This document shows, one piece after another, positions 4,712 through 59,570 of a DNA stretch of 64,000 nt. The stretch lies in the IMG/VR virus record IMGVR_UViG_3300035698_014446, positions 28,206 to 92,205 of that record. One strand, written 5' to 3'. Both the position numbers and the translations under genes were made by a program. The notes under the pieces were generated by a model that saw only the letters and a program-made list of their open reading frames with translations, did no database searches and was not told the DNA's origin. This DNA comes from a virus. Positions within the stretch are counted from its first letter, which is position 1. Each line of letters opens with the position of its first letter.

Positions 4712-4723
4712 ATTTTGTCCCTG

Positions 4724-5353
4724 TCAAGCAATTACCCAGTTTACTTTATTACCTTTTTTAGTGTTACATAGTATACAACACAGTACAATGTTATTTATTT
4801 CGTGCCTACCATCTCTGTCCAATGAAATAACGTGATCTTTACTTATACCATTCGGATTATATTTAAATTGTACATTTTCCTCAAGCACCACATTACAATA
4901 CACACAACGACCATTATACTCAGTTATTTTATCAGCCCATTCTTGTGCAGTTATACCTTCATCGCCTACTAATTTTAGTAATCTACGATTGTCGTTATGA
5001 ATTTTTAATGACTCTTTATTGTTCTTACGCCATTTCTTTTGTTGTAATTTTATTTTCCTACAATTCACCTCTCTGTATTCTTTTTGTTGTATGGCTATTT
5101 TATTTTTATTATTATCGTACCACACTTTTTTCCGTTTTACTTCTTTTTCTTTATTTTTATTACGCCACTTTTTACCATAAATTTTCATTTTATTTTTATT
5201 TTTACTACGCCACTCTTTACTATGGACAGCAGCACATTTTTTACATCGTTGTTGAAAACCAAATTTTCCCTTTTTATTTTTATAAAAATGTTCAGAAATA
5301 GCTAAAAACTTTATATTACAATCAGAACATATTATAAAATTATATGTAGTCAC
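4724..5353 (-). CDS. HNH homing endonuclease
   Basis: RCVYC...DHVISL...H...NIVLCCILCN. Paralogue of 2909 and 6039. Confidence 0.85.
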   Translation of the reverse strand: MTTYNFIICSDCNIKFLAISEHFYKNKKGKFGFQQRCKKCAAVHSKEWRSKNKNKMKIYGKKWRNKNKEKEVKRKKVWYDNNKNKIAIQQKEYREVNCRKIKLQQKKWRKNNKESLKIHNDNRRLLKLVGDEGITAQEWADKITEYNGRCVYCNVVLEENVQFKYNPNGISKDHVISLDRDGRHEINNIVLCCILCNTKKGNKVNWVIA

Positions 5354-6031
5354 TTATAACCGTACTCCTGTAATAATAAGTCTGTGTCCACGTATTGAGT
5401 TTTGGAGAGGATTATTATTAGTGTAATATTTTACCCAATAATCATTGAATTCCATTACCTCACTAGTTTCCTTTATTAATACATGCGCTGAATCAATGAT
5501 AGCATGTCTCTTTATCTCGTTAATCAGTTTTATTATGTCAAAATTAGACGAAAAATACCTAATACCTTGTCTATCCTGACGAATAATAGAACGTAAGCTA
5601 CCACCTACACTCCACTTAAACAAAGTAATATGAAATCGTCTAGCGCAAGTTGTTATGTTCTTTATCGCCGTTACTACAGGATACGTGTGTTCAACCACAT
5701 CACACACTCTCACCAGATCATACAAAATAACTGGTTCATTGACAAATCTCTCTATAACGCCTTTGATAATGTTAACGTCCGGATACATCTTAGCTATGTA
5801 ATCAATAAACGATTTTGACGTTTCCAACACGTTATACTTTATAGTTCTTATCTTTCTTATCTCCGGGTATTCTATTAATTGTCCGGGTCCTATTTCCAGA
5901 ATTGATTTTATATTTTCATGTTTTCTAATATACTCTATATACATTTTATGATATAAATCTTTTCTGTTATGTTCGATAAACCCTACATCACCGGGCTTAT
6001 ATTGATCCCACTTTTTAAGTAATTCCGTCAT
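5354..6031 (-). CDS. Class I SAM-dependent methyltransferase
   Basis: SILEIGPG, YDLVRVCDVVEH. Confidence 0.75.
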   Translation of the reverse strand: MTELLKKWDQYKPGDVGFIEHNRKDLYHKMYIEYIRKHENIKSILEIGPGQLIEYPEIRKIRTIKYNVLETSKSFIDYIAKMYPDVNIIKGVIERFVNEPVILYDLVRVCDVVEHTYPVVTAIKNITTCARRFHITLFKWSVGGSLRSIIRQDRQGIRYFSSNFDIIKLINEIKRHAIIDSAHVLIKETSEVMEFNDYWVKYYTNNNPLQNSIRGHRLIITGVRL

Positions 6032-33150: not shown

Positions 33151-33323
33151 TTAAGTTGTGTGGCGTCCGCACCACGCCGCTCCACCGCACGGGAAGCCGC
33201 GCCCGGGGCCAAGAATCACCGGGGCGTCGCCCCCACCTCGACCGCGCCAACGTAGACGGGAAGCCAAAGGAAGGGCCACGCCGAGGTCGAGGACAGGGCA
33301 ACACACCAAGACGGGCGCAGAAA

Positions 33324-33362
33324 TGTGGTCCGCTCGACACATCGCGTAGTCCCGACACTACG
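33324..33362 (+). promoter_or_regulatory. Tandem upstream activator-like palindromes (TGT-N12-ACA and CGT-N12-ACG) for promoter 1
   Basis: tgtggtccgctcgacaca (33324) and cgtagtcccgacactacg (33345), 21 bp apart. Confidence 0.55.
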
Positions 33363-33413
33363 CCACCGGACCGCGCACCCCCTCTCCTGGCCTCCCGTGA
33401 AGGGTACGCGCTC

Positions 33414-33428
33414 TGGCACGCGGGTTGC
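33414..33428 (+). promoter_or_regulatory. sigma54 (RpoN) -24/-12 promoter 1
   Basis: TGGCACG-CGGG-TTGC, followed by tcttttttagg. Confidence 0.85.
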
Positions 33429-33497
33429 TCTTTTTTAGGTGGGGGCCGCCCACCGGGCGGCTCCCGCCGCCCCCCTGTCGGGGGCGGACCACGAATC

Positions 33498-33535
33498 GGG
33501 GCCACCCGTCCCCACGAGTCGGGCAGAATAGGAGC
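33498..33535 (+). ncRNA. 5'-UTR pseudoknot motif copy 1 with SD
   Basis: P1 gggg/cccc, P2 cccg/cggg, loop acgagt, then cagaataggag. Confidence 0.6.
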
Positions 33536-33542
33536 ACCAACC

Positions 33543-34016
33543 ATGACCACAAAACAAACGAACGAAGAAAGGGCCGCCGCACACCGTGCCGCCGCCACCG
33601 AACACGAAGCCCGTGCTGCCGGACCCGCCACAGGAGGCCGGACCGACAACCACGAAGCCCGCGCCGCCGAACACCGGGCCGCCGCCCAAACACACACAGC
33701 AGCCGCCGCCGCACAACGAACAGCAGCCGCACCGGCAACCAGCACCGAGAAAAAGTGCACCGACGCCAACGCCGCCGACGTCACAACGACACACGCCACC
33801 GACGCCACGCTCGCCGCCGCCGACGCCCGCAACGGCGTACCGGCAACCAGCACCGAACAAGCCGCCGCCGGAGCCGCCGCCGAAGCCGCAGCGGCGCAGA
33901 ACGAAGCCGAGCGCCAGACGGACCGGGGTCGCCCCGACCATGCCGCTCGCGCCCGGACCGAAGCCGCCGAAGCGCACGATGCAGCAGCAGCACATCACCG
34001 CACCGCCGCCGAGTAG
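33543..34016 (+). CDS. Ala/His/Thr-rich early protein encoded almost without T
   Basis: AGGAG RBS, first gene after promoter 1, 14 T in 474 nt, HRAAA repeats. Confidence 0.75.
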   Translation: MTTKQTNEERAAAHRAAATEHEARAAGPATGGRTDNHEARAAEHRAAAQTHTAAAAAQRTAAAPATSTEKKCTDANAADVTTTHATDATLAAADARNGVPATSTEQAAAGAAAEAAAAQNEAERQTDRGRPDHAARARTEAAEAHDAAAAHHRTAAE

Positions 34017-34136
34017 CACAACAGCCCCGCCCCTCGGCCAGCGAGCCGGGGGGCCGTCGGGCCAGCCCCCGCAACAGCGGGGGCGAGCCCGGCGCGACCG
34101 AGCGACCCGCACAAGCGGGAAGCCGACGACGCCAAA

Positions 34137-34177
34137 CGGGACCAGTCCGGACCCGACCAAACCGGGCAGAACAGGAG
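34137..34177 (+). ncRNA. 5'-UTR pseudoknot motif copy 2 with SD
   Basis: P1 cggg/cccg, P2 gtccgg/ccgggc, then agaacaggag. Confidence 0.6.
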
Positions 34178-34185
34178 CAACGATC

Positions 34186-34755
34186 ATGGGAACCAGACAA
34201 AGCAAGAACAGCACAGGCCGCAAGGCCACAGAGGCCAAAACAGGAACCGCAACCCCCAACACGATCAGCAAGGCCACGCCGCCGAGCGCACCCGCGCCGA
34301 CCCCCGCCGAAACCACCGTGCCCACCTCATCGGTCGTCGATGTCCGCGACCTCTCAGTTGCCGAGCTTCGACTACTGCTGACAGAGGCCAAAACACGCGA
34401 AGCTCCCGCCAAGGCCGCAGCCAAAGGACAGGCTAAGCTCGCCAAACTCCGGACCTATGCGGTCCGGCAGCGGGCGTGGGCCGAGTCGCAGACTGCCAAA
34501 GCTAGCACGGCGTGCGACCGGGCCGACAAGGCCGAGGCCGCACTGGCGACCTACGAGGCCAAGTTGGGCATCGACCCCGCGACGGAGGCCGAAATCGCCG
34601 CGACTCTCGCCGCGCTGATCGCCTCCGGGCGAGTCGTACAAGTCGATTCGTCCTCTCTCGTCGGGCCAGAGCCGGAGGGGACCGAGGCTGAGACCGCAGT
34701 CGCCGACGTCGAAACCGCCAAGACCGACGACAAGGCCGACTCCGCCGCCGCGTAG
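34186..34755 (+). CDS. Early coiled-coil protein, GC-rich paralogue of 37239-37847
   Basis: LSVAELRLL...KLAKLRTYAVRQRAWA...YEAKLG...GRVVQV aligns without gaps to the paralogue. Confidence 0.85.
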   Translation: MGTRQSKNSTGRKATEAKTGTATPNTISKATPPSAPAPTPAETTVPTSSVVDVRDLSVAELRLLLTEAKTREAPAKAAAKGQAKLAKLRTYAVRQRAWAESQTAKASTACDRADKAEAALATYEAKLGIDPATEAEIAATLAALIASGRVVQVDSSSLVGPEPEGTEAETAVADVETAKTDDKADSAAA

Positions 34756-34975
34756 TGCGGAACCAGCTCCACCGACGCCCCCGCCTCGTGCGGGGGCCAT
34801 CGGGCCGACGCCCCGACCAACCGGGGGCGTCCGCCCGGTGACGGACCGCCAACGGGGACGGTGCACGTCCGCTGCGAGCGGACGCCGCCTCCGGGGGCCG
34901 ACTGCGCCTCCGCTACGAGCGGGGAGCGTCGGGGGCCAGCGCGCGAGCGCGGGCCGCCCCGCCAAGGCGGGCGAA
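34756..34975 (+). other. Cluster of about six GC-rich stem-loops in an intergenic spacer
   Basis: e.g. gcccccgc/gcgggggc, gacgcccc/ggggcgtc, cgtccgc/gcggacg. Confidence 0.55.
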
Positions 34976-34982
34976 CAGACAC

Positions 34983-35019
34983 GGGCACGGGTCCGCCCAC
35001 GAACGGCCCAGAACAGGAG
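34983..35019 (+). ncRNA. 5'-UTR pseudoknot motif copy 3 with SD
   Basis: P1 gggc/gccc, P2 gggtc/ggccc, loop acgaa. Confidence 0.6.
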
Positions 35020-35027
35020 CAAGAACA

Positions 35028-35288
35028 ATGGAACACGAACAAGAACAGAAAAGAGCAATCGTTATCAGCTATCGCGAGCTGTACAAGCTTGGTATGCCCA
35101 ACGACGAGATACACGGTATTCTCGTTGTGGGACACGACAAGTGGGCAGCTATCGGGGCTACGGTTGACCTCTACATGGATCCCAACGAAAACACAGCGTA
35201 TCTCGTCGTCCGGGGTGTTAGCGAAGCAATCATAGCGCTAGTACACGAAATGACTGACCAAATGATAGACATCAGCTACACTGACTAA
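35028..35288 (+). CDS. Hypothetical early protein
   Basis: AGGAG RBS and pseudoknot leader. Confidence 0.7.
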   Translation: MEHEQEQKRAIVISYRELYKLGMPNDEIHGILVVGHDKWAAIGATVDLYMDPNENTAYLVVRGVSEAIIALVHEMTDQMIDISYTD

Positions 35289-35399
35289 GCAACAACCGAA
35301 TAATCAACAACTAACGTTTCCCCGGCTTGCCGGGGCCACCGGGTCATCATCCGCGTATGCGGGCATCCGCTCGGTGTGTAGGTGTACACCAAACCAAAC

Positions 35400-35436
35400 G
35401 GGTATGGACCGGCCCACGAATGGTCCAGAACAGGAA
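35400..35436 (+). ncRNA. 5'-UTR pseudoknot motif copy 4
   Basis: P1 gggt/gccc, P2 tggacc/ggtcca, loop acgaa. Confidence 0.6.
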
Positions 35437-35444
35437 CAGGAACC

Positions 35445-35939
35445 ATGAGACACAAACAGAAACAGGCGCAAACAACCACCTCAATGCACATTGATGCAGC
35501 ACAGGCACTTGACGCGTTGGCTACTGCTACTGATGATGCAGAACAGACCGCATCATACGTCGCTGATGCCGCTGAACACCGCCGCGCTGCCAGTGTAGCT
35601 AATCAAGCCACAGTTGTTAACAACTTGGTTAAACAAGCACAAAAGCAAGATAACGCAACAAAGGCTGCAGGTGGTATCGGGCATATTGCAGTAGCAACCG
35701 AACATCGTGTCGCTGCTGCCGCACATGATCAGGCAATGAAAAATGAGTTGGTGGAGCACATTAACGGACCAGATATAACCATCGAAGAAGTAATTGCCCT
35801 GTACAACGTGTTAGCACAGAACGAAATCCTTGAAAAAAGAGCATTGGATGACATGGTGGAAGAGATAGTGGAACATCTTTCCGGCGGTGACGTTACTAAG
35901 GAAGAAGTAATACGAATGTATTGCACATTAACGGAATAA
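35445..35939 (+). CDS. Ala-rich early protein related to 33543-34016, with a duplicated C-terminal motif
   Basis: AAEHRRAA and TEHRVAAAAHD. ELVEHINGPDITIEEVIALY repeated as EIVEHLSGGDVTKEEVIRMY. Confidence 0.65.
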   Translation: MRHKQKQAQTTTSMHIDAAQALDALATATDDAEQTASYVADAAEHRRAASVANQATVVNNLVKQAQKQDNATKAAGGIGHIAVATEHRVAAAAHDQAMKNELVEHINGPDITIEEVIALYNVLAQNEILEKRALDDMVEEIVEHLSGGDVTKEEVIRMYCTLTE

Positions 35940-36020
35940 AAACCACGTTAGCGGTAAATAGCGTTAACGTGCTGTGTGTACGTTGTGTTAAAACAACATG
36001 TATCAATGACTGTTGATGTA

Positions 36021-36194
36021 CATATACCACCGGTTGTATATGAGACATCATGAGAAGCATTGACATACAACCGATGGTATATGATGAGCATGTTACGTAC
36101 AAACAACATAATGTTGTGTTGAAACAACATGCCCAATGTACCAACCACAACCGGTGGTATACCGAACAGTACAATATACAACCGGTGGTATATG
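36021..36194. repeat. Four palindromic operator-like boxes, consensus ATAC(A/C)ACCGGT(G/T)GTAT
   Basis: Copies at ~36021, 36064, 36146, 36174. Confidence 0.75.
36091..36129 (+). promoter_or_regulatory. Tandem TGTT(A/G)-N8-CAACA upstream activator-like sites for promoter 2
   Basis: 36091 and 36112, 21 bp apart. A third copy at 35981. Confidence 0.7.
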
Positions 36195-36202
36195 TGGCTT
36201 TC

Positions 36203-36217
36203 TGGCACGCGGATTGC
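36203..36217 (+). promoter_or_regulatory. sigma54 promoter 2
   Basis: TGGCACG-CGGA-TTGC, followed by tcttctttagg. Confidence 0.85.
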
Positions 36218-36294
36218 TCTTCTTTAGGGTGGAGGCACAATCTCCAAGGGCAGGTCGCCAGTCTCGACGAATCTGGCAGATAGGAGCACGAACC

Positions 36295-36606
36295 ATGTGT
36301 GAGGAACGAACAGGGACTCCGGCTGAGGAACACGCCCGCGATCATGCGGACTTCGTGGCTGGACAGGAGGCCGTTACTGTTCTTGCCGGACAGGTCAGGA
36401 TGGGTCCGGTCGAGCAAGCCGCTGCGTGCGGCTACGCGGTTGATTGCAACGACTGTCAGCAGAGGCACAAATGCGCAAGGCACTCCATCAACGAACTGTG
36501 GCTTGTGGTTCACGCTAATCGCGACCACGACGCTATTCTTGAGGCGGCTGAAAGTAGGGCCATGACCGCAGAGAACCTGATCGGGGTCATCAAGCGGCTG
36601 CTGTAG
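36295..36606 (+). CDS. Hypothetical early protein with CxxC
   Basis: AGGAG RBS. First gene after promoter 2. Confidence 0.7.
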   Translation: MCEERTGTPAEEHARDHADFVAGQEAVTVLAGQVRMGPVEQAAACGYAVDCNDCQQRHKCARHSINELWLVVHANRDHDAILEAAESRAMTAENLIGVIKRLL

Positions 36607-36685
36607 CACTGATATCGTCCCTTGCTGATTGCAGGGGGCGTCAGGCCTACGTCCGCGATGGCGGACGTTAACCTAACGCAAATGA

Positions 36686-36722
36686 GGGTATGGGTTGACC
36701 CACGACAGACCCAGAACAGGAG
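36686..36722 (+). ncRNA. 5'-UTR pseudoknot motif copy 6 with SD
   Basis: P1 gggt/accc, P2 tgggtt/gaccca, loop acgaca. Confidence 0.6.
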
Positions 36723-36727
36723 TAGTC

Positions 36728-36925
36728 ATGAATGACAATATAACAGCAAAAGACATGGAAAACATCCAAATCGTCGACAAACACACCTATTATATTGTAA
36801 TTGTTGGCCAGGTGTACTTGTCGGCTAACAACAGCCTTACGCCAATATTGTCCGCAGCAAAACAATACCCCAATTATAACGCCGCAAGTTATGCTGCAGA
36901 TTTATGGCTCGAGAGTACGTATTAA
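36728..36925 (+). CDS. Hypothetical early protein
   Basis: AGGAG RBS and pseudoknot leader. Confidence 0.6.
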   Translation: MNDNITAKDMENIQIVDKHTYYIVIVGQVYLSANNSLTPILSAAKQYPNYNAASYAADLWLESTY

Positions 36926-37238
36926 CCACTATAACCTTTTTATGGGAATAGAATTATGATACTTGATTTAGACTCACGCAAACACGAAATAACTAACGAA
37001 AAGGAACAGATTGTCCATGTTGACAATGCAAAAGTATTTTGGATTAACGGCGAAGTCGAAGATTGCTCATTATCGTTTCAACGACTGGCAAACTTCAACT
37101 TTGATTTTGATAAACTCGACGACTTCTATAATAATAACTAACTTTCGCCGCTCCTAGCCCCAGCCGGTTCAATTCCGACAAGCGGTTTAATGAGTAAGAA
37201 ATTGAAAACTTAATAATACTTTTGAAAGGAAAAGAAAC

Positions 37239-37847
37239 ATGAGTAAAAGTAGAAAAAACAAAAGCAGTCAGAGTCCGAAACAGGTCCCAAAACGTGCTAG
37301 CGAAAAGGCAATGCGTGAAAGCACATCCAAGAAAGGGCCAAAACTATCGCCAAACACCCACGGAACTGAGAATAACCCAAAACAGGTTGACGAAAGTAAA
37401 ATTGCCGCCATCGACGCTGCTGCAGCCGATAAGCCTGAGAAAATAATCGACCCAAAGATTGCGGTAATACTGGCTAAGCCGCCAACTGAATTAACCGTCA
37501 AAGAGTTACGAATCCTGATCAAGTACAAGGAAGGCGACAAAATTGCAGCCAATGCTGCAGAGCGAGGCAAAAACAAGCTTGCCAAAATGCGAACGTATGC
37601 TATCCGTCAACGAGCGTGGGCAGACAGACAGACGGAAAAAGCCGAGGCATCCGAGAAGAAAGCCACAACCGCGGAGGCCAAACTGACTGAGTACGAGGTA
37701 AAGATTGGGGTTGAAGAATTGACTGACGAGGAGATTGACAAGGTACTAAAAGAATTGATGAGTCAAGGTCGTGTGGCTCAGATATCAATTAAGAAAATTT
37801 TGGAACCACACGAGGATGATCAAGCAGCAACAACGGTAATCAGTTAA
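37239..37847 (+). CDS. Coiled-coil protein, normal-composition paralogue of 34186-34755
   Basis: LTVKELRIL...KLAKMRTYAIRQRAWA...YEVKIG...GRVAQI. Confidence 0.85.
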   Translation: MSKSRKNKSSQSPKQVPKRASEKAMRESTSKKGPKLSPNTHGTENNPKQVDESKIAAIDAAAADKPEKIIDPKIAVILAKPPTELTVKELRILIKYKEGDKIAANAAERGKNKLAKMRTYAIRQRAWADRQTEKAEASEKKATTAEAKLTEYEVKIGVEELTDEEIDKVLKELMSQGRVAQISIKKILEPHEDDQAATTVIS

Positions 37848-37850
37848 TGA

Positions 37851-37902
37851 ATAGCTACGGTACGGCAGAGTTATAAGCTCTGTCGGTCCGTAACTGTTTT
37901 TT
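37851..37902 (+). terminator. Probable rho-independent terminator
   Basis: Imperfect stem tacgg..cggcagag/ctctgtcg..ccgta followed by a T-run. Confidence 0.55.
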
Positions 37903-38646
37903 AATTTTTAAAAGGAGCAGAAACATGAGTGCAAAATACGTAATATACCATAAAGGTGGTGGGTACTTACAGGAAGACGGTAACTACACTAATGATATTA
38001 AAAAAGCATGGATTTTCAACACCAAAGAAGATGCCGAAATTGAAATTGCTGGGTGTAGTGAAAAAGTGGAAACTGTAACTATATAATAATATTGTTTTAA
38101 TCAACACGATTAAAACATAAAAATAAAATTAGAGAGTTTAGACTAAAATGAAAGGAAATAAAGATGGAAGCTTATTTTTGTAAAAATTGTAAAGTAGTTA
38201 TTCTTGAAGATGAATTAGAGAATGACTGTTGTCCTCATTGTGGTAATGGGGAGCTAGAAATAGTTCCTAAAGAAACTCAATAACTTTTACCGGAAATACT
38301 GTAGTGATAACGCGTTAAATTGCGGAATCATCAGCTTAAAATCGAAGGGGTGGACTCTTGACAAAAGATCACCCACCCACGATCGCTTCATTGTGGCTTA
38401 CAAACCGGTTTTAACGATTCACAAGTGCTAATTAACAGAAGGACAAAATAACATGGCAACTATGGACCCAATACTGAAAAAAGAGATAAAAAGCGTTATA
38501 GAATCGTTTGAATTGTTTGCTGAGGAAGTACTACCTCAGTCCGGTTCAATAGTCTTTGATATCGGCAATCTGAACGATGGTCTATTATTGGCTAAAAAAG
38601 TGAAACACTACTTAGATGGTTTGGACTAAACAAAAGGAAGGACAGA

Positions 38647-39024
38647 ATGATGCAGATAGGTAATATTGAAAAACATTTAGAAGACAACTGTAGTCTTGAG
38701 GACATACAGGAGTTGAGCAAGGCTTTGGGTATAGCAATAAAGCACCTACCGAATATACTGGTGTCGGAATTGTACCTCAGGGCATTAACCGCCAGCGTTA
38801 ACATGATCGGACACAAGAAAGGCGATGAACCAGCAGCGGACCTGATCAAGCGGTTGTGCAAAGAGCATAATGAAACAGAAGAATACATCCGCGGGACAGC
38901 TATTGACGCAGCCATGCAGACGATATCAAGCTTAAAACATGGCGATATTTTTGACATGCTGGGTCTTGAGGATGATGATGAGTTATTCAAGTTTATTGAT
39001 ATTGCGATAATACTAAACCTGTGA
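38647..39024 (+). CDS. Hypothetical protein
   Basis: ORF with AAGGA RBS. Confidence 0.6.
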   Translation: MMQIGNIEKHLEDNCSLEDIQELSKALGIAIKHLPNILVSELYLRALTASVNMIGHKKGDEPAADLIKRLCKEHNETEEYIRGTAIDAAMQTISSLKHGDIFDMLGLEDDDELFKFIDIAIILNL

Positions 39025-39037
39025 ACAGTAGTGGGCG

Positions 39038-39142
39038 TGTTGCGTCGGTGCAACATGTGTTTATTCGGCGCAACATGGCCTACCGGGATATATACAACGG
39101 GTTGTATATTGGGTATCACTAACATACTACCCGTAGTATATG
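39038..39142 (+). promoter_or_regulatory. Tandem TGTT-N9-CAACA-type sites (39038, 39058) and two ATAC..GTAT palindromes (39089, 39123) upstream of promoter 3
   Basis: Same order and spacing as at promoter 2. Confidence 0.7.
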
Positions 39143-39148
39143 CCATCT

Positions 39149-39163
39149 TGGCACGAAGTTTGC
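39149..39163 (+). promoter_or_regulatory. sigma54 promoter 3
   Basis: TGGCACG-AAGT-TTGC, followed by tctttttagg. Confidence 0.85.
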
Positions 39164-39181
39164 TCTTTTTAGGGTAGAGAT

Positions 39182-39220
39182 TGGCGGCGGACCGGCCAGT
39201 GACAGGTTCGAGATTTGGAG
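39182..39220 (+). ncRNA. 5'-UTR pseudoknot motif copy 7 (fully covaried)
   Basis: P1 tggc/gcca, P2 ggacc/ggttc, then GGAG SD. Confidence 0.55.
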
Positions 39221-39225
39221 CAGTC

Positions 39226-39654
39226 ATGAGTGAGTATTTTAAAGTAGTTGAGTTTAAGCATGGTGGGAACAATGAACACGTAGAAACAGTACAGCGTGTG
39301 TCAGGACTTCCTATAGAACAGATCAAGGGTGAACGGTTTAAAGGACAGGTATGGTTCACAACTCTTGGCATCATCGTCTCAACCTACGATGGTGAAAATC
39401 AACGACAGCTAATTGTAAACGCTGATCAGAGTGGGAGAACAGAAGTATTGATGATCTACTCACCAGTTGACAGTCCGATGATCATCGAACACACGGTGTG
39501 TGAAGGGCAAACCTATCAACAGAGGCAGGAAGGGATTATGGTCGACAGGGCGGGCATCATCAACCCAAAGATTGAGGAGTTTATGACTTCTATCCCAGAT
39601 GAAGCGGCCAAGATCATAATGGACTCCGAACTATGGCAGTATATGACATACTGA
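39226..39654 (+). CDS. Hypothetical early protein
   Basis: GGAG RBS. First gene after promoter 3. Confidence 0.65.
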   Translation: MSEYFKVVEFKHGGNNEHVETVQRVSGLPIEQIKGERFKGQVWFTTLGIIVSTYDGENQRQLIVNADQSGRTEVLMIYSPVDSPMIIEHTVCEGQTYQQRQEGIMVDRAGIINPKIEEFMTSIPDEAAKIIMDSELWQYMTY

Positions 39655-40221: not shown

Positions 40222-40776
40222 CATTAGCGCAATTGTACAATAGATGGGTTAATGCACTGGTCAAACAGTTAAAAGACCGTAAAGCGTACGAGGTAATCCT
40301 CAACAAAAGGGATAGTACAAGATACAACATCATGTTTAGTAGCTGTAATAAGTCAGATTTTGAATCTGTGTGCAGCATAACCATGTTCTTCAAAGAACCG
40401 AAGAGATTACATCTTACAGCTTTAACCGTGTATGGAAAACGGGGGATAGAAATGGCCATCGACGACACTGATAGTGTGATCGCATGGTTTGACAAACAAG
40501 ACGTACTTAAATGAAAGGAGCAAGAAGTGGGTTATTACGGCTACAACAGAGGAGTCAAGTTACTAAAGAAGGATGAATTAGGTAACAGTTGGGGACATGA
40601 TAGACTGATTACCCACCGTGAGTACGTCAGTGCGTACTCCGCTAAACACGCGGTCTTTGCACTGAAATTACACGGGTGGGACGTTAGCAACGCCTATCCG
40701 ACGAAAGATTATAAAGTGGTAGCGTCCAAACGAGTGTAAGTCCAAATGTTAATACTAATTCTAAAGGAGAGCAAAA

Positions 40777-57220: not shown

Positions 57221-58375
57221 TCAATCCTCTATATATTGAAATTCTTCATTTTTCATAAATCGGTCATGTCCGCACTGTATACAACTGTCATGCTTATCGG
57301 AAATCGTACCACATTGACAACACTTCCAGTCCATCACTCGAAGTACTCTCATATCCTTGTTCATCGCCCCGGTCCCCAACAGCGTCAGCTTACATCCGTG
57401 GTCCGCCAGCAGTTTTCCCTTATCACTCAAAAACTCTTCCAATTCGTGCTGGTTGATGTAATTAACGAAATTCAGGAACGCGTAATCCGGTTTTACCGCA
57501 CACAAGAACCGTTCAACCTGCTTGTCCGACCATGTAAACAATCGGCGAATCCGTTTAGTTACCGTGGTCCTCTCTTCCACATTCATCCCAATCTTCGCAC
57601 TCAAATCAACCCACGTCATTTCGTGCTGATCATGGTAGAAAGGGCCGCTGGTCCCGCCGGGGGTATTACCTACTCGTATGGGGTAAGTCCTGAGGCTTGC
57701 GAAGATGGAACCGCAATCCTTCACGCTTACTCCGGCGTTATCCAGCACCCTTCCCACCATGCAATCTCTGCTCGTGCAATACGGCCACTCGAATCCGTTG
57801 TTTAGCCCAAGGTCAAAACCTTGTGCTGTCTCCAGTAACGCTGTCTTGCCGTGCTTGAGCAGTCTCTGCATCAACTTATGTGTATCGCATACAAACTCTC
57901 TCAGTTTGGGATTATCTTTAGCCAAATGCGCCTTTTCTGGACTTCTCCACATTTTCCTAATCACTGACGCACAGCTACCCTGCATAGTACTGGATATGCT
58001 GTTTAGTTCTTCTCGCTCCGTAGCTGCGTCTGCATCACACAAAACGGTTACTAACGGGTGTATATGTAGTGAAAATTTCCTCGTTGCAAACTGTTCACGC
58101 AACAATTCCTCAAAAACCCTTGCTTCCTGAATCACTGCGTGGGGACCGACGATCACATTTTCTATGTAATCAAAACTTATTGCCGATGGTAGGGCTTTGG
58201 TGATGTGTGATACCCCATCATCACTTACATATGTATGCCCGGCGTTCGGCATGAAATCACACACAGCGACGGTTATTTCTGGATACGTATTATACAAATA
58301 TGCAGCCAATTTTCCTTTTCCAGTTGACCCCCACTGTCCATCGATAATCACGTTGGCTTTTCCTGTTTGAATCAT
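57221..58375 (-). CDS. purZ: N6-succino-2-amino-2'-deoxyadenylate synthase (PurZ)
   Basis: GQWGSTGKG (Ser in place of the PurA catalytic Asp), PNAGHT, YCTSRD, RTYPIRVG, TTVTKRIRR, LNFVNY in place of PurA TKLD. Confidence 0.92.
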   Translation of the reverse strand: MIQTGKANVIIDGQWGSTGKGKLAAYLYNTYPEITVAVCDFMPNAGHTYVSDDGVSHITKALPSAISFDYIENVIVGPHAVIQEARVFEELLREQFATRKFSLHIHPLVTVLCDADAATEREELNSISSTMQGSCASVIRKMWRSPEKAHLAKDNPKLREFVCDTHKLMQRLLKHGKTALLETAQGFDLGLNNGFEWPYCTSRDCMVGRVLDNAGVSVKDCGSIFASLRTYPIRVGNTPGGTSGPFYHDQHEMTWVDLSAKIGMNVEERTTVTKRIRRLFTWSDKQVERFLCAVKPDYAFLNFVNYINQHELEEFLSDKGKLLADHGCKLTLLGTGAMNKDMRVLRVMDWKCCQCGTISDKHDSCIQCGHDRFMKNEEFQYIED

Positions 58376-58406: not shown

Positions 58407-59570
58407 TTATGCCTTAATCACGGCTAACGGTTTTAGTTCAACCACTATATCTACTAAATCTTTTTGATTTTCCATGACAACTGTTATATCTTTATACGCG
58501 CCGGATGCCTCATCCAAATCTGTTACTGATCGAATAGAATGGATAATGTTGGAATCATTGAGAAACTTAATTTCTTTCTCAAGATCAAGTTCACGCCTTG
58601 CTTGATTCCTGCCCATTTTTCTACCAGCACCGTGGGAACAAGACATAAAACTATCACGACAACCCTTACCCTTAACAATGTAACTTGATGTACCTTGTGA
58701 CCCAGGTATTATTCCAATTTCACCATCTTTGGCGGACGTTGCACCCTTACGATGAACTATAACATTTTTACCAAAATGATTTTCCCACCGAGCATAATTA
58801 TGGTGTACATCAATTGGGGAATCGTTAAAATTTTCTGATGTTGGTCCATCGAGGCAGTACTCTACTTTTTTCATCATTAATGCTCTACTATTTTTTGCAA
58901 ACATTAGTGCGTAATTCATAGCCTCTATGTATTCTTTAGCTTCGTTTGTTTCTATCGGTAGAAACGCAAGACCATCCTCACCTTTACAGACAGGAATGTT
59001 AGAATACCATCTTTCACAAAGTGATTGTGCGATTTTGTTGTACTCTTTAGCTATTTTAAGTCCGAAATTACGACTTCCGGAATGAAGCATTATCCATATA
59101 TAACCATCAGACCCCTGTTGTATTTCTATAAAATGGTTTCCACCACCAAGCGTCCCCATCTGCTTTCTCGCTGACGCAAGTTGTTTTTGTATTACTGGTA
59201 TATCTGGTGCGACAGCAAACCCCGACCAGTATTGGTTTTCTTTATGATGATTGAATCCTAACGGTATTACTTCTCTAATAGCAGACATAACCATCTTTAA
59301 TTCTGCAGTAGTAATAGATTTTCTGGCAGTTTTAACAGCACACATACCACAACCAATATCCACACCTACCGCGTTAGGAATTACTACGCCGTTTGTGGCT
59401 AAAACTCCTCCTATTGGCATGCCGTACCCTCTGTGAGCATCCGGCATTATAGCTACGTGTTTAAACGTAAATGGGAGATTTGCTAAATCTATAGCTTGTT
59501 TCACAGCCCCATCCTCAATGTCGTCTAACCACATTTTTATAGGTTTGCTCTCTGTTATTAATACTTTCAT
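58407..59570 (-). CDS. rtcB: RtcB RNA ligase
   Basis: MPDAHRGYG, VGVDIGCG, GTLGGGNHF, HSGSR, HRKGA, SHGAGR, DEASGAYKDI. Confidence 0.95.
   Translation of the reverse strand: MKVLITESKPIKMWLDDIEDGAVKQAIDLANLPFTFKHVAIMPDAHRGYGMPIGGVLATNGVVIPNAVGVDIGCGMCAVKTARKSITTAELKMVMSAIREVIPLGFNHHKENQYWSGFAVAPDIPVIQKQLASARKQMGTLGGGNHFIEIQQGSDGYIWIMLHSGSRNFGLKIAKEYNKIAQSLCERWYSNIPVCKGEDGLAFLPIETNEAKEYIEAMNYALMFAKNSRALMMKKVEYCLDGPTSENFNDSPIDVHHNYARWENHFGKNVIVHRKGATSAKDGEIGIIPGSQGTSSYIVKGKGCRDSFMSCSHGAGRKMGRNQARRELDLEKEIKFLNDSNIIHSIRSVTDLDEASGAYKDITVVMENQKDLVDIVVELKPLAVIKA

Follow-up and report, generated by a model that had tools for sequence, protein, structure and literature searches.

A small H-type pseudoknot recurs before the Shine-Dalgarno sequences of promoter-proximal genes in a salt-lake phage

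Background

The window analysed here is a stretch of 64,000 nucleotides (nt), bases 28206-92205 of a 92,205-base-pair (bp) virus record of IMG/VR (IMGVR_UViG_3300035698_014446) that has direct terminal repeats. We argue that a conserved H-type pseudoknot of 26-31 nt is a real feature of this phage's RNA, and that it sits in 5' leaders within three sigma-54-driven operons, at their promoter-proximal cistrons. We would put the probability of this at roughly 85%. An earlier reading of the DNA (the original prediction) had proposed that seven sites share one topology, and every coordinate and every stem it quoted is in the DNA as it said. It also held that the stems vary in sequence and yet keep pairing, and this is borne out, since both stems covary among the paralogous copies and in two relatives. 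Its description of the motif as an undescribed cis-acting RNA is likewise supported: a search of Rfam over 33300-39400 came back empty both at the gathering threshold and at E<=10. The interpretation as a whole holds in part. The covarying, undescribed motif stands, while the several functions offered for it are all still in contention.

The arguments below concern two separate questions, whether the structure exists and what it does. We believe the structure is well supported and that the support is good for such a small family. The function is a more difficult matter, and there we can only rank the possibilities.

The copies of the pseudoknot

Six copies share a single H-type layout, which in order consists of P1 (4 bp), L1 (1-4 nt), P2 (4-6 bp), J (1 nt), P1', L3 (6 nt, with the consensus ACGAAN) and P2'. 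The original prediction allowed L1 a range of 1 to 6 nt; the six good copies keep to 1-4 nt, and the 6-nt loop is limited to the weak seventh copy. On the 3' side of the knot there follow, in order, a single-stranded linker that starts with or contains AGA, a GGAG or GGAA, and ATG. The distance from the 3' end of the knot is 5-7 nt to the GGA and 14-19 nt to the ATG. The loop of P1 measures 7-11 nt, and the crossing helices P1 and P2 have no nucleotides in common. In eight copies helix 2 encloses the 3' strand of helix 1 between its own strands and the loops are long enough to span the grooves, which is the arrangement that defines the H-type class. The copies in the window, written in the order of the layout, are the following.

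33498-33545, + strand: copy s1, GGGG-cca-CCCG-t-CCCC-acgagt-CGGG, then cAGAATAGGAG, 8 nt and ATG (33543); knot at 33498-33523
34137-34188, + strand: copy s2, CGGG-acca-GUCCGG-a-CCCG-accaaa-CCGGGC, then AGAACAGGAG and ATG (34186); knot at 34137-34167
34983-35030, + strand: copy s3, GGGC-ac-GGGUC-c-GCCC-acgaac-GGCCC, then AGAACAGGAG and ATG (35028); knot at 34983-35009
35400-35447, + strand: copy s4, GGGU-a-UGGACC-g-GCCC-acgaau-GGUCCA, then GAACAGGAA and ATG (35445); knot at 35400-35427
36248-36297, + strand: copy s5, degenerate, GGG-cagguc-GCCAG-u-CUCG-acgaau-CUGGC, then AGAUAGGAG and ATG (36295); copy at 36248-36277
36686-36730, + strand: copy s6, GGGU-a-UGGGUU-g-ACCC-acgaca-GACCCA, then GAACAGGAG and ATG (36728); knot at 36686-36713
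39182-39228, + strand: copy s7, UGGC-gg-CGGACC-g-GCCA-gugaca-GGUUCG, then AGAUUUGGAG and ATG (39226); knot at 39182-39210

Copy s5 needs a separate description. It is in exact register for P2 (GCCAG/CTGGC), for J, for L3 (ACGAAU) and for the AGA-TAGGAG tail. Its P1 is reduced to three weak pairs, GGG/CUC including a G-U, with CUCG as the second strand (P1b) and an L1 of 6 nt, and it does not satisfy the descriptor; the original prediction was right to call the copy near 36248 a weaker one. With s5 and the copies in the two relatives there are nine in all. Among these the unpaired positions are conserved in two places, a GA in L3 (eight of nine copies, s2 being the sole copy without it) and an AGA after P2' (nine of nine). 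The sequences of J and L1 vary from copy to copy. Just 5' of the s1 knot, at 33470-33497, there is also a partial duplicate of the 3' half of s1 (GGACCACGAAUCGGGG against CCCCACGAGUCGGGC) that lacks matching 5' strands and was probably left over from a duplication.

Support for the structure

Each site was compared with dinucleotide shuffles of its own 36 nt, using 1000 trials, a flexible descriptor and the best pseudoknot stacking energy. The stacking energies of the six copies are -18.9 to -22.3 kcal/mol. Shuffles matched the real energy in 7 of 1000 trials for s1 and in 0 of 1000 for each of s2, s3, s4, s6 and s7. The nested minimum-free-energy folds vary between the copies, and the knot is common to all of them. 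A conserved alternative pairing, of P1 with P2', was considered and rejected, being feasible in s3 and s6 only.

The specificity of the pattern depends on how much of it is demanded. A generic descriptor of the knot plus a Shine-Dalgarno (SD) sequence gave about 100 matches in 3.4 Mb of other phage loci, mostly in GC-rich ones. The family-specific descriptor demands the GA in L3, the AGA linker, the GGA and a start codon; it gave 6 matches in the 92-kb genome and, in 5.7 Mb of other phage loci, about nine weak AU-rich matches plus the two true relatives. A scan of IMG/VR with the linear motif returned at least 109 chance matches, and among the matches listed one had knot potential. When IMG/VR was scanned with an exact pattern of loop plus tail, only single chance matches were returned, all of them without knots.

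The covariation was measured in two ways. The first used an alignment that was not fitted to the structure, in which s1, s3, s4 and s6 were aligned by MAFFT without gaps. In that alignment 92.5% of the cells pair, against 74.6% in shuffles (1 of 500), and both sides change in five of the ten pairs (4 of 500 shuffles). Sliding the partners by at least one column brings pairing down to 62.5% or less. The second was a table of eight copies defined by coordinates, with the four P1 pairs and the four P2 pairs that are shared; standard pairs fill 64 of its 64 cells, a figure that leans towards the structure because the table was fitted to it. Within this table P1 pair 1 occurs as GC, CG and UA, pair 4 occurs as GC, CG, UA and UG, and each shared P2 pair shows three or four pair types. 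P1 pairs 2 and 3 are invariant G-C. When the orthologous pair of copies is merged, just 4 of 5040 reassignments of the 3' strands keep P1 intact in all copies, and the same is true of P2. Compensatory change is thus seen in both helices, at the small depth of three contigs.

The invariant nucleotides are themselves informative. The central G-C pairs of P1 and the GA of L3 are neighbours in an H-type fold, and we infer that L3 may dock in the minor groove of P1, which would fit this adjacency. A covariance model (R1) was also built from four copies with P1 as the nested helix, and was used to search 73 kb. It recovered s2 (E 4e-5), s5 (E 4e-4) and L163 (E 0.075), with s7 and L124 found weakly, and it found no further copy in the window. 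The R1 alignment was not used for the pair counts because s2 and L163 are out of register in it.

The two relatives

Two true relatives were reached. The first, L124, is a 2.8-kb marine-sediment contig that was found in JGI metagenomes by a search with the protein family of the s2 gene, and a protein identical to its own is annotated in a Methylophaga sp. bin. It carries a gene of the s2 family, the gene that lies upstream of promoter 3 in the window, enhancer-like repeats, a sigma-54 promoter and a knot of the s7 type. Window 39149-39235 and L124:1984-2070 are about 90% identical across the promoter, the knot, the SD and the first codons (ATGAGTGA); outside this cassette the flanks are far less alike and the downstream gene is different. 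The L124 knot (L124:2017-2064, the orthologue of s7) has three substitutions, one in L1, one in L3 and one C-to-U that turns a G-C into a G-U, so pairing is preserved. Judging by these sequences, the leader of promoter, knot and SD appears to behave as a portable expression cassette. The downstream gene of L124 has homologues at window 38291-38428, with no obvious start, and at 40557-40736.

The second relative, L163, is a 5.9-kb IMG/VR contig; of the 59 matches obtained by scanning IMG/VR with the promoter pattern, it was the one true relative. On this contig are a sigma-54 promoter, a 5' hairpin and a knot whose two helices have both been rewritten (CGGC/GCCG and GCCC/GGGC). What it keeps is J, L3 (ACGACA), the AGA linker, the GGAG and the spacing. 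The operon is syntenic, the second gene of L163 being homologous to the s2 gene (E 2e-9). Later genes of this contig have another repeated leader, with six GGUC-RUUGC-GACC hairpins followed by AACGAAAGGAGAAAC and a start codon, at 4715-4830 and 5805-5855.

Other routes to relatives gave little. A search of IMG/VR and GTDB genomes for the s2-family protein found nothing, and a profile search added four more distant members of the family, one of them on an 85-kb contig. The loci reached through relatives of TerL, 80 for the window and 11 for L163, include no early region bearing sigma-54 promoters or knots. A word-indexed search with the 38647 protein gave no homologues, and the s7-type pattern was not found in genome contigs.

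Weighing the structure

Several points count against a conserved pseudoknot and are best considered together. Once a conservative penalty is charged for the pseudoknot, its score is -6.7 to -10.9 kcal/mol, against -6.6 to -9.1 kcal/mol for the best nested core fold; these are comparable, so energy alone does not decide between them. The covariation is not phylogenetically deep, because there are only three contigs and seven of the nine copies are paralogues from one genome. Copy s5 has lost P1 and kept its position. The homologue of the s2 gene in L163 has a different leader.

One could therefore argue that there is no functional RNA knot at all. The pattern would then be the P2 hairpin alone together with GGG/CCC words, or an operator or promoter acting as DNA, or a by-product of duplication in GC-rich sequence. 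The invariance of P1 pairs 2 and 3 and the lack of P1 in s5 are what such an explanation would lead one to expect, and chance stems are common in GC-rich DNA, as the matches to the generic descriptor illustrate. It is harder to reconcile with P1 pairs 1 and 4, which covary, and with the small number of permutations that keep the helix. The half-sites differ among the copies, which argues against a common DNA-binding protein, and the strand and spacing of the motif are bound to the SD and the ATG. The near absence of knot potential among the chance matches listed from the linear-motif scan of IMG/VR also tells against it. On balance we regard the absence of a functional knot as improbable, and continue with the conserved H-type pseudoknot.

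Promoters, operons and the phage

The promoters of the three operons lie outside the RNA and are given here for context.

33414-33429, + strand: sigma-54-type promoter 1, TGGCACG-N4-TTGCT, exact match
36203-36218, + strand: sigma-54-type promoter 2, exact match
39149-39164, + strand: sigma-54-type promoter 3, exact match

These three are the only exact matches to TGGCACG-N4-TTGCT in the window, and 100 shuffles gave none. They have the GG at -24 and the GC at -12 of the sigma-54 type (TGGCACG-N4-TTGCW), and promoters of the same type are present in L124 and L163 (L163:4171-4186). Upstream of promoter 2 and of promoter 3, at 36020-36200 and 39085-39140, lie inverted-repeat sites in tandem, TATAC-N-ACCGGTGGTATAT, which look like enhancer sites. 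The same architecture of repeats plus a sigma-54 promoter occurs in both relatives (L124:1815-1999), and it is unusual for the early transcription of a phage. A sub-threshold Rfam match to mir-552 at window 36022-36082 (-) (E 9e-4; 33 bits, where the gathering score is 100) is not a microRNA; it is a long inverted repeat of the enhancer-like region 5' of promoter 2.

All four genes of operon 1 have a knot in front of them; in operon 2 only the first two genes do, and in operon 3 only the first. The AT-rich genes further along these operons have no knot and use plain sites of the AAAGGAG type. The s1 gene is the first after promoter 1, and two 5' hairpins separate the predicted transcription start from its knot. 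The s5 gene is the first after promoter 2, and a 5' hairpin comes ahead of its copy as well, as it does in L163. The knots of s7 and L124 begin only about 6-10 nt past the predicted transcription start, which for s7 is that of promoter 3. In operon 1 the elements follow one another in a regular order: a gene, two to four very stable GC hairpins, an A-rich linker of 5-10 nt, and the knot. Clusters of such stable GC hairpins, without U-tracts, follow early genes at 34029-34130, 34775-34975, 35320-35376 and 36619-36679, and the stretch 34017-34136 folds at -76 kcal/mol over 120 nt (z = -6.5). The clusters could be 3' stabilisers or sites of the RNase III type.

The phage comes from salt-lake metagenomes. 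It encodes a PurZ-like enzyme, RtcB, a DnaB-like helicase, a primase and a terminase of the PBSX type. The PurZ-like enzyme, of the 2-aminoadenine pathway (PHROG 1211, E 1e-55; window 57221-58375, -), adjoins the RtcB RNA ligase (E 4e-120; 58407-59570, -), and the phage probably has a Z-genome. By megablast and tblastn, neither the region nor the s2-family protein had a relative among cultured phages, and TerL is at most 39% identical to any cultured-phage protein. Between 33.4 and 39.3 kb the window holds small + strand ORFan genes, and the neighbouring proteins could be assigned to no Pfam or PHROG family. We call these genes early from their position alone, as promoter-proximal ORFans. The first two (33543-34755) have 3.0% and 9.8% T in the coding strand and 67-71% GC, in a phage with about 38% GC overall. 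Both have paralogues: that of the s2 gene, at 37239-37847, is normal in composition (36% identity), and that of the s1 gene is at 35445-35939. The region is present in nine salt-lake DNA runs. Contigs compared from four of these are identical, so they provide no population variants, and there is no RNA run among the listed holders of the region.

Comparison with known pseudoknots

The family is undescribed, and defining features set it apart from preQ1-I, guanidine-III, coremin/xrRNA-C and the T4 gene 32 operator. The resemblance to preQ1-I (RF00522) is that both are tiny pseudoknots of the H-type that adjoin an SD and have a purine-rich L3 along P1. The preQ1-I covariance model does not match here, however; P2' ends 5-7 nt before the GGA and does not overlap the SD, L3 is ACGAAN instead of an A-tract, and there is no link to queuosine genes. 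The guanidine-III family (ykkC-III, RF01763) has the layout in which ACGR lies in L1. In the present motif ACGA is found in L3, L1 consists of 1-4 variable nt, and cmscan gave no match to the family.

The pseudoknot of gene 32 in T4 and T2 is of the H-type, with a 1-nt L1 over a stem 2 of 6-7 bp and a loop of 6-7 nt over stem 1. It is like the present motif in being an H-type pseudoknot in a phage messenger RNA (mRNA) leader upstream of a ribosome-binding site, and in having the geometry of the classical knots with a 1-nt L1. The gene 32 knot lies about 40-70 nt before the start, occurs once per genome at the gene for the single-stranded DNA-binding protein (SSB), and nucleates the cooperative binding of gp32 on an A/U-rich spacer. 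Here there are instead seven copies, 14-19 nt from the ATGs of ORFans, with a purine linker and no A/U-rich spacer. The SSB-like gene of the phage (60383-61492, -) has no copy of the knot.

Coremin is defined by a hairpin of 3 bp, whose loop is YGAD (4 nt) or YGNNAD (6 nt), and by a conserved spacer of about 10 nt that ends in a CUAC pairing with the loop (PMC10321173). Coremin/xrRNA-C and the present motif are both compact pseudoknots with a YGA-containing loop and with adenosines possibly in the minor groove of stem S1, and a roadblock role is possible. The defining features of coremin are nevertheless missing here, where the loop of P1 has 7-11 nt, the YGA is found in L3, and neither AAAC nor a CUAC spacer follows P1'; the knots also stand ahead of start codons and not behind stop codons. 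The 5' pseudoknot of the +42 mRNA of tisB in E. coli (PMC7708055) is similar in being of the H-type in an mRNA leader, near the 5' end as in s7 and L124. It differs in lying about 100 nt from a sequestered ribosome-binding site, whereas here 5-7 nt separate the knot from an SD that is largely open by prediction, and the two have no sequence similarity. Reasoning by analogy, the function most resembles that of standby or enhancer pseudoknots that bind protein S1, with which the position and topology would be compatible.

A few other readings were tried and rejected. The motif is not a stimulator of -1 frameshifting, as there is no slippery heptamer and the upstream open reading frames end 79-227 nt earlier. 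It is not an intrinsic terminator, having no U-tract, and it is not a CsrA site, since the GGA lies outside any hairpin loop. Pairing of the tail with an antisense small RNA was rejected too, because the window holds no antisense match to the tail.

What the pseudoknot may do

The explanation that we rank first, tentatively and at somewhat less than even odds, is that the knot is a cis-acting module of translation initiation, on which the 30S subunit and S1 would dock and which would bound the ribosome site. This is an argument from analogy. S1 binds H-type pseudoknots at nanomolar affinity, and in tisB the 5' pseudoknot is needed for the binding of 30S and S1 and for standby translation (PMC7708055). 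Given its distance of 14-19 nt from the AUG, the knot should lie where the mRNA exit channel opens on the 30S platform, with no need to be unfolded. There it may offer the 30S subunit and S1 a place to dock or stand by, and it may also act as a rigid 5' boundary of the ribosome-binding site that would bar invasion by the strong GC hairpins upstream. Leaders rich in A and U that bind S1 are unavailable in the first operon because its mRNA is almost free of U, and the pseudoknot may substitute for them there. The ACA of the linker AGAACAGGAG may contribute enhancer activity, as ACA motifs just 5' of the SD raise translation (PMC3879156).

There are difficulties with this proposal. When the knot nucleotides were blocked in silico, the predicted accessibility of the SD was unchanged in s1-s3 and lowered in s4, and it was raised only in s6, s7, L124 and L163. 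Since accessibility is not raised in s1-s4, the half of the model that treats the knot as an insulator gains little from these predictions. The conserved GA of L3 and the invariant AGA would also suit a sequence-specific trans-acting factor equally well. One form of that idea is that the knot, AGA linker and SD together are an operator for an RNA-binding protein of the phage or the host, by which the first genes would be switched off (or on) together, in the manner of RegA, RegB and gp32 in T4. The retention of these two unpaired motifs while the stems vary would be explained by it, and the restriction to first cistrons would make the genes a regulon-like set. T4 RegB and S1 target GGA-plus-A-rich sites in early SDs (PMC1702504). 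Set against this, no candidate RNA-binding protein has been found; the neighbouring proteins belong to no Pfam or PHROG family; J and L1 are unconserved; and the window lacks an antisense match to the tail. We think such an operator unlikely, although the proposal deserves to be kept beside ours.

A different proposal is that the knot is a 5' stabiliser or a processing boundary. The polycistronic early RNA would be cut in the A-rich linker that separates the 3' GC hairpins of one gene from the next gene's knot, and the knot would shield the 5' end so created from a 5'-3' exonuclease or from RNase E acting in a 5'-end-dependent way; the native 5' end of primary transcripts would be shielded likewise. 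The regular order of hairpins, A-rich linker and knot in operon 1 is what this predicts, the knots of s7 and L124 are close to the predicted transcription start, and compact pseudoknots of similar geometry stop exonucleases and ribosomes in eukaryotic viruses (PMC10321173). The fixed spacing of 5-7 nt to the SD would be unnecessary for a stabiliser, however, and the defining features of coremin are not found. A single-stranded 5' end of 6-10 nt exceeds what protective 5' stem-loops tolerate in E. coli, and the sole hint of a host is a gammaproteobacterium, a group without RNase J. We doubt that this is the role of the knot. It could also be asked whether the knot is one of the compact pseudoknot riboswitches for small ligands, sensing a metabolite, such as one linked to the metabolism of nucleotides or of the Z base, and tuning the translation of the first genes. 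Its size and topology are like those of the preQ1-I, SAM-II and guanidine-III aptamers, and the few invariant nucleotides lie around P1 and L3. Yet Rfam gave nothing even at the permissive threshold, there is no obvious expression platform because P2' does not overlap the SD, the genes under control would be seven unrelated ORFans, and L1 and J, which usually line the ligand pocket, are variable. We consider a riboswitch very improbable.

Conclusions

Returning to a module of translation initiation, it is conceivable, if some way from probable, that the knot, AGA linker and SD form an "immediate-early translation tag", a new class of leader recognised by the ribosome or by a factor. The first sigma-54-driven, partly U-free messages of a Z-genome phage would be translated by means of it and later shut off together. 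If the knot recruits or positions ribosomes, then the knot, linker and SD would be a compact and portable translation module of about 45 nt. Such a module would be usable in GC-rich and even nearly U-free mRNA. It would also give an entry point to how PurZ (Z-genome) phages with sigma-54 promoters launch their first genes.

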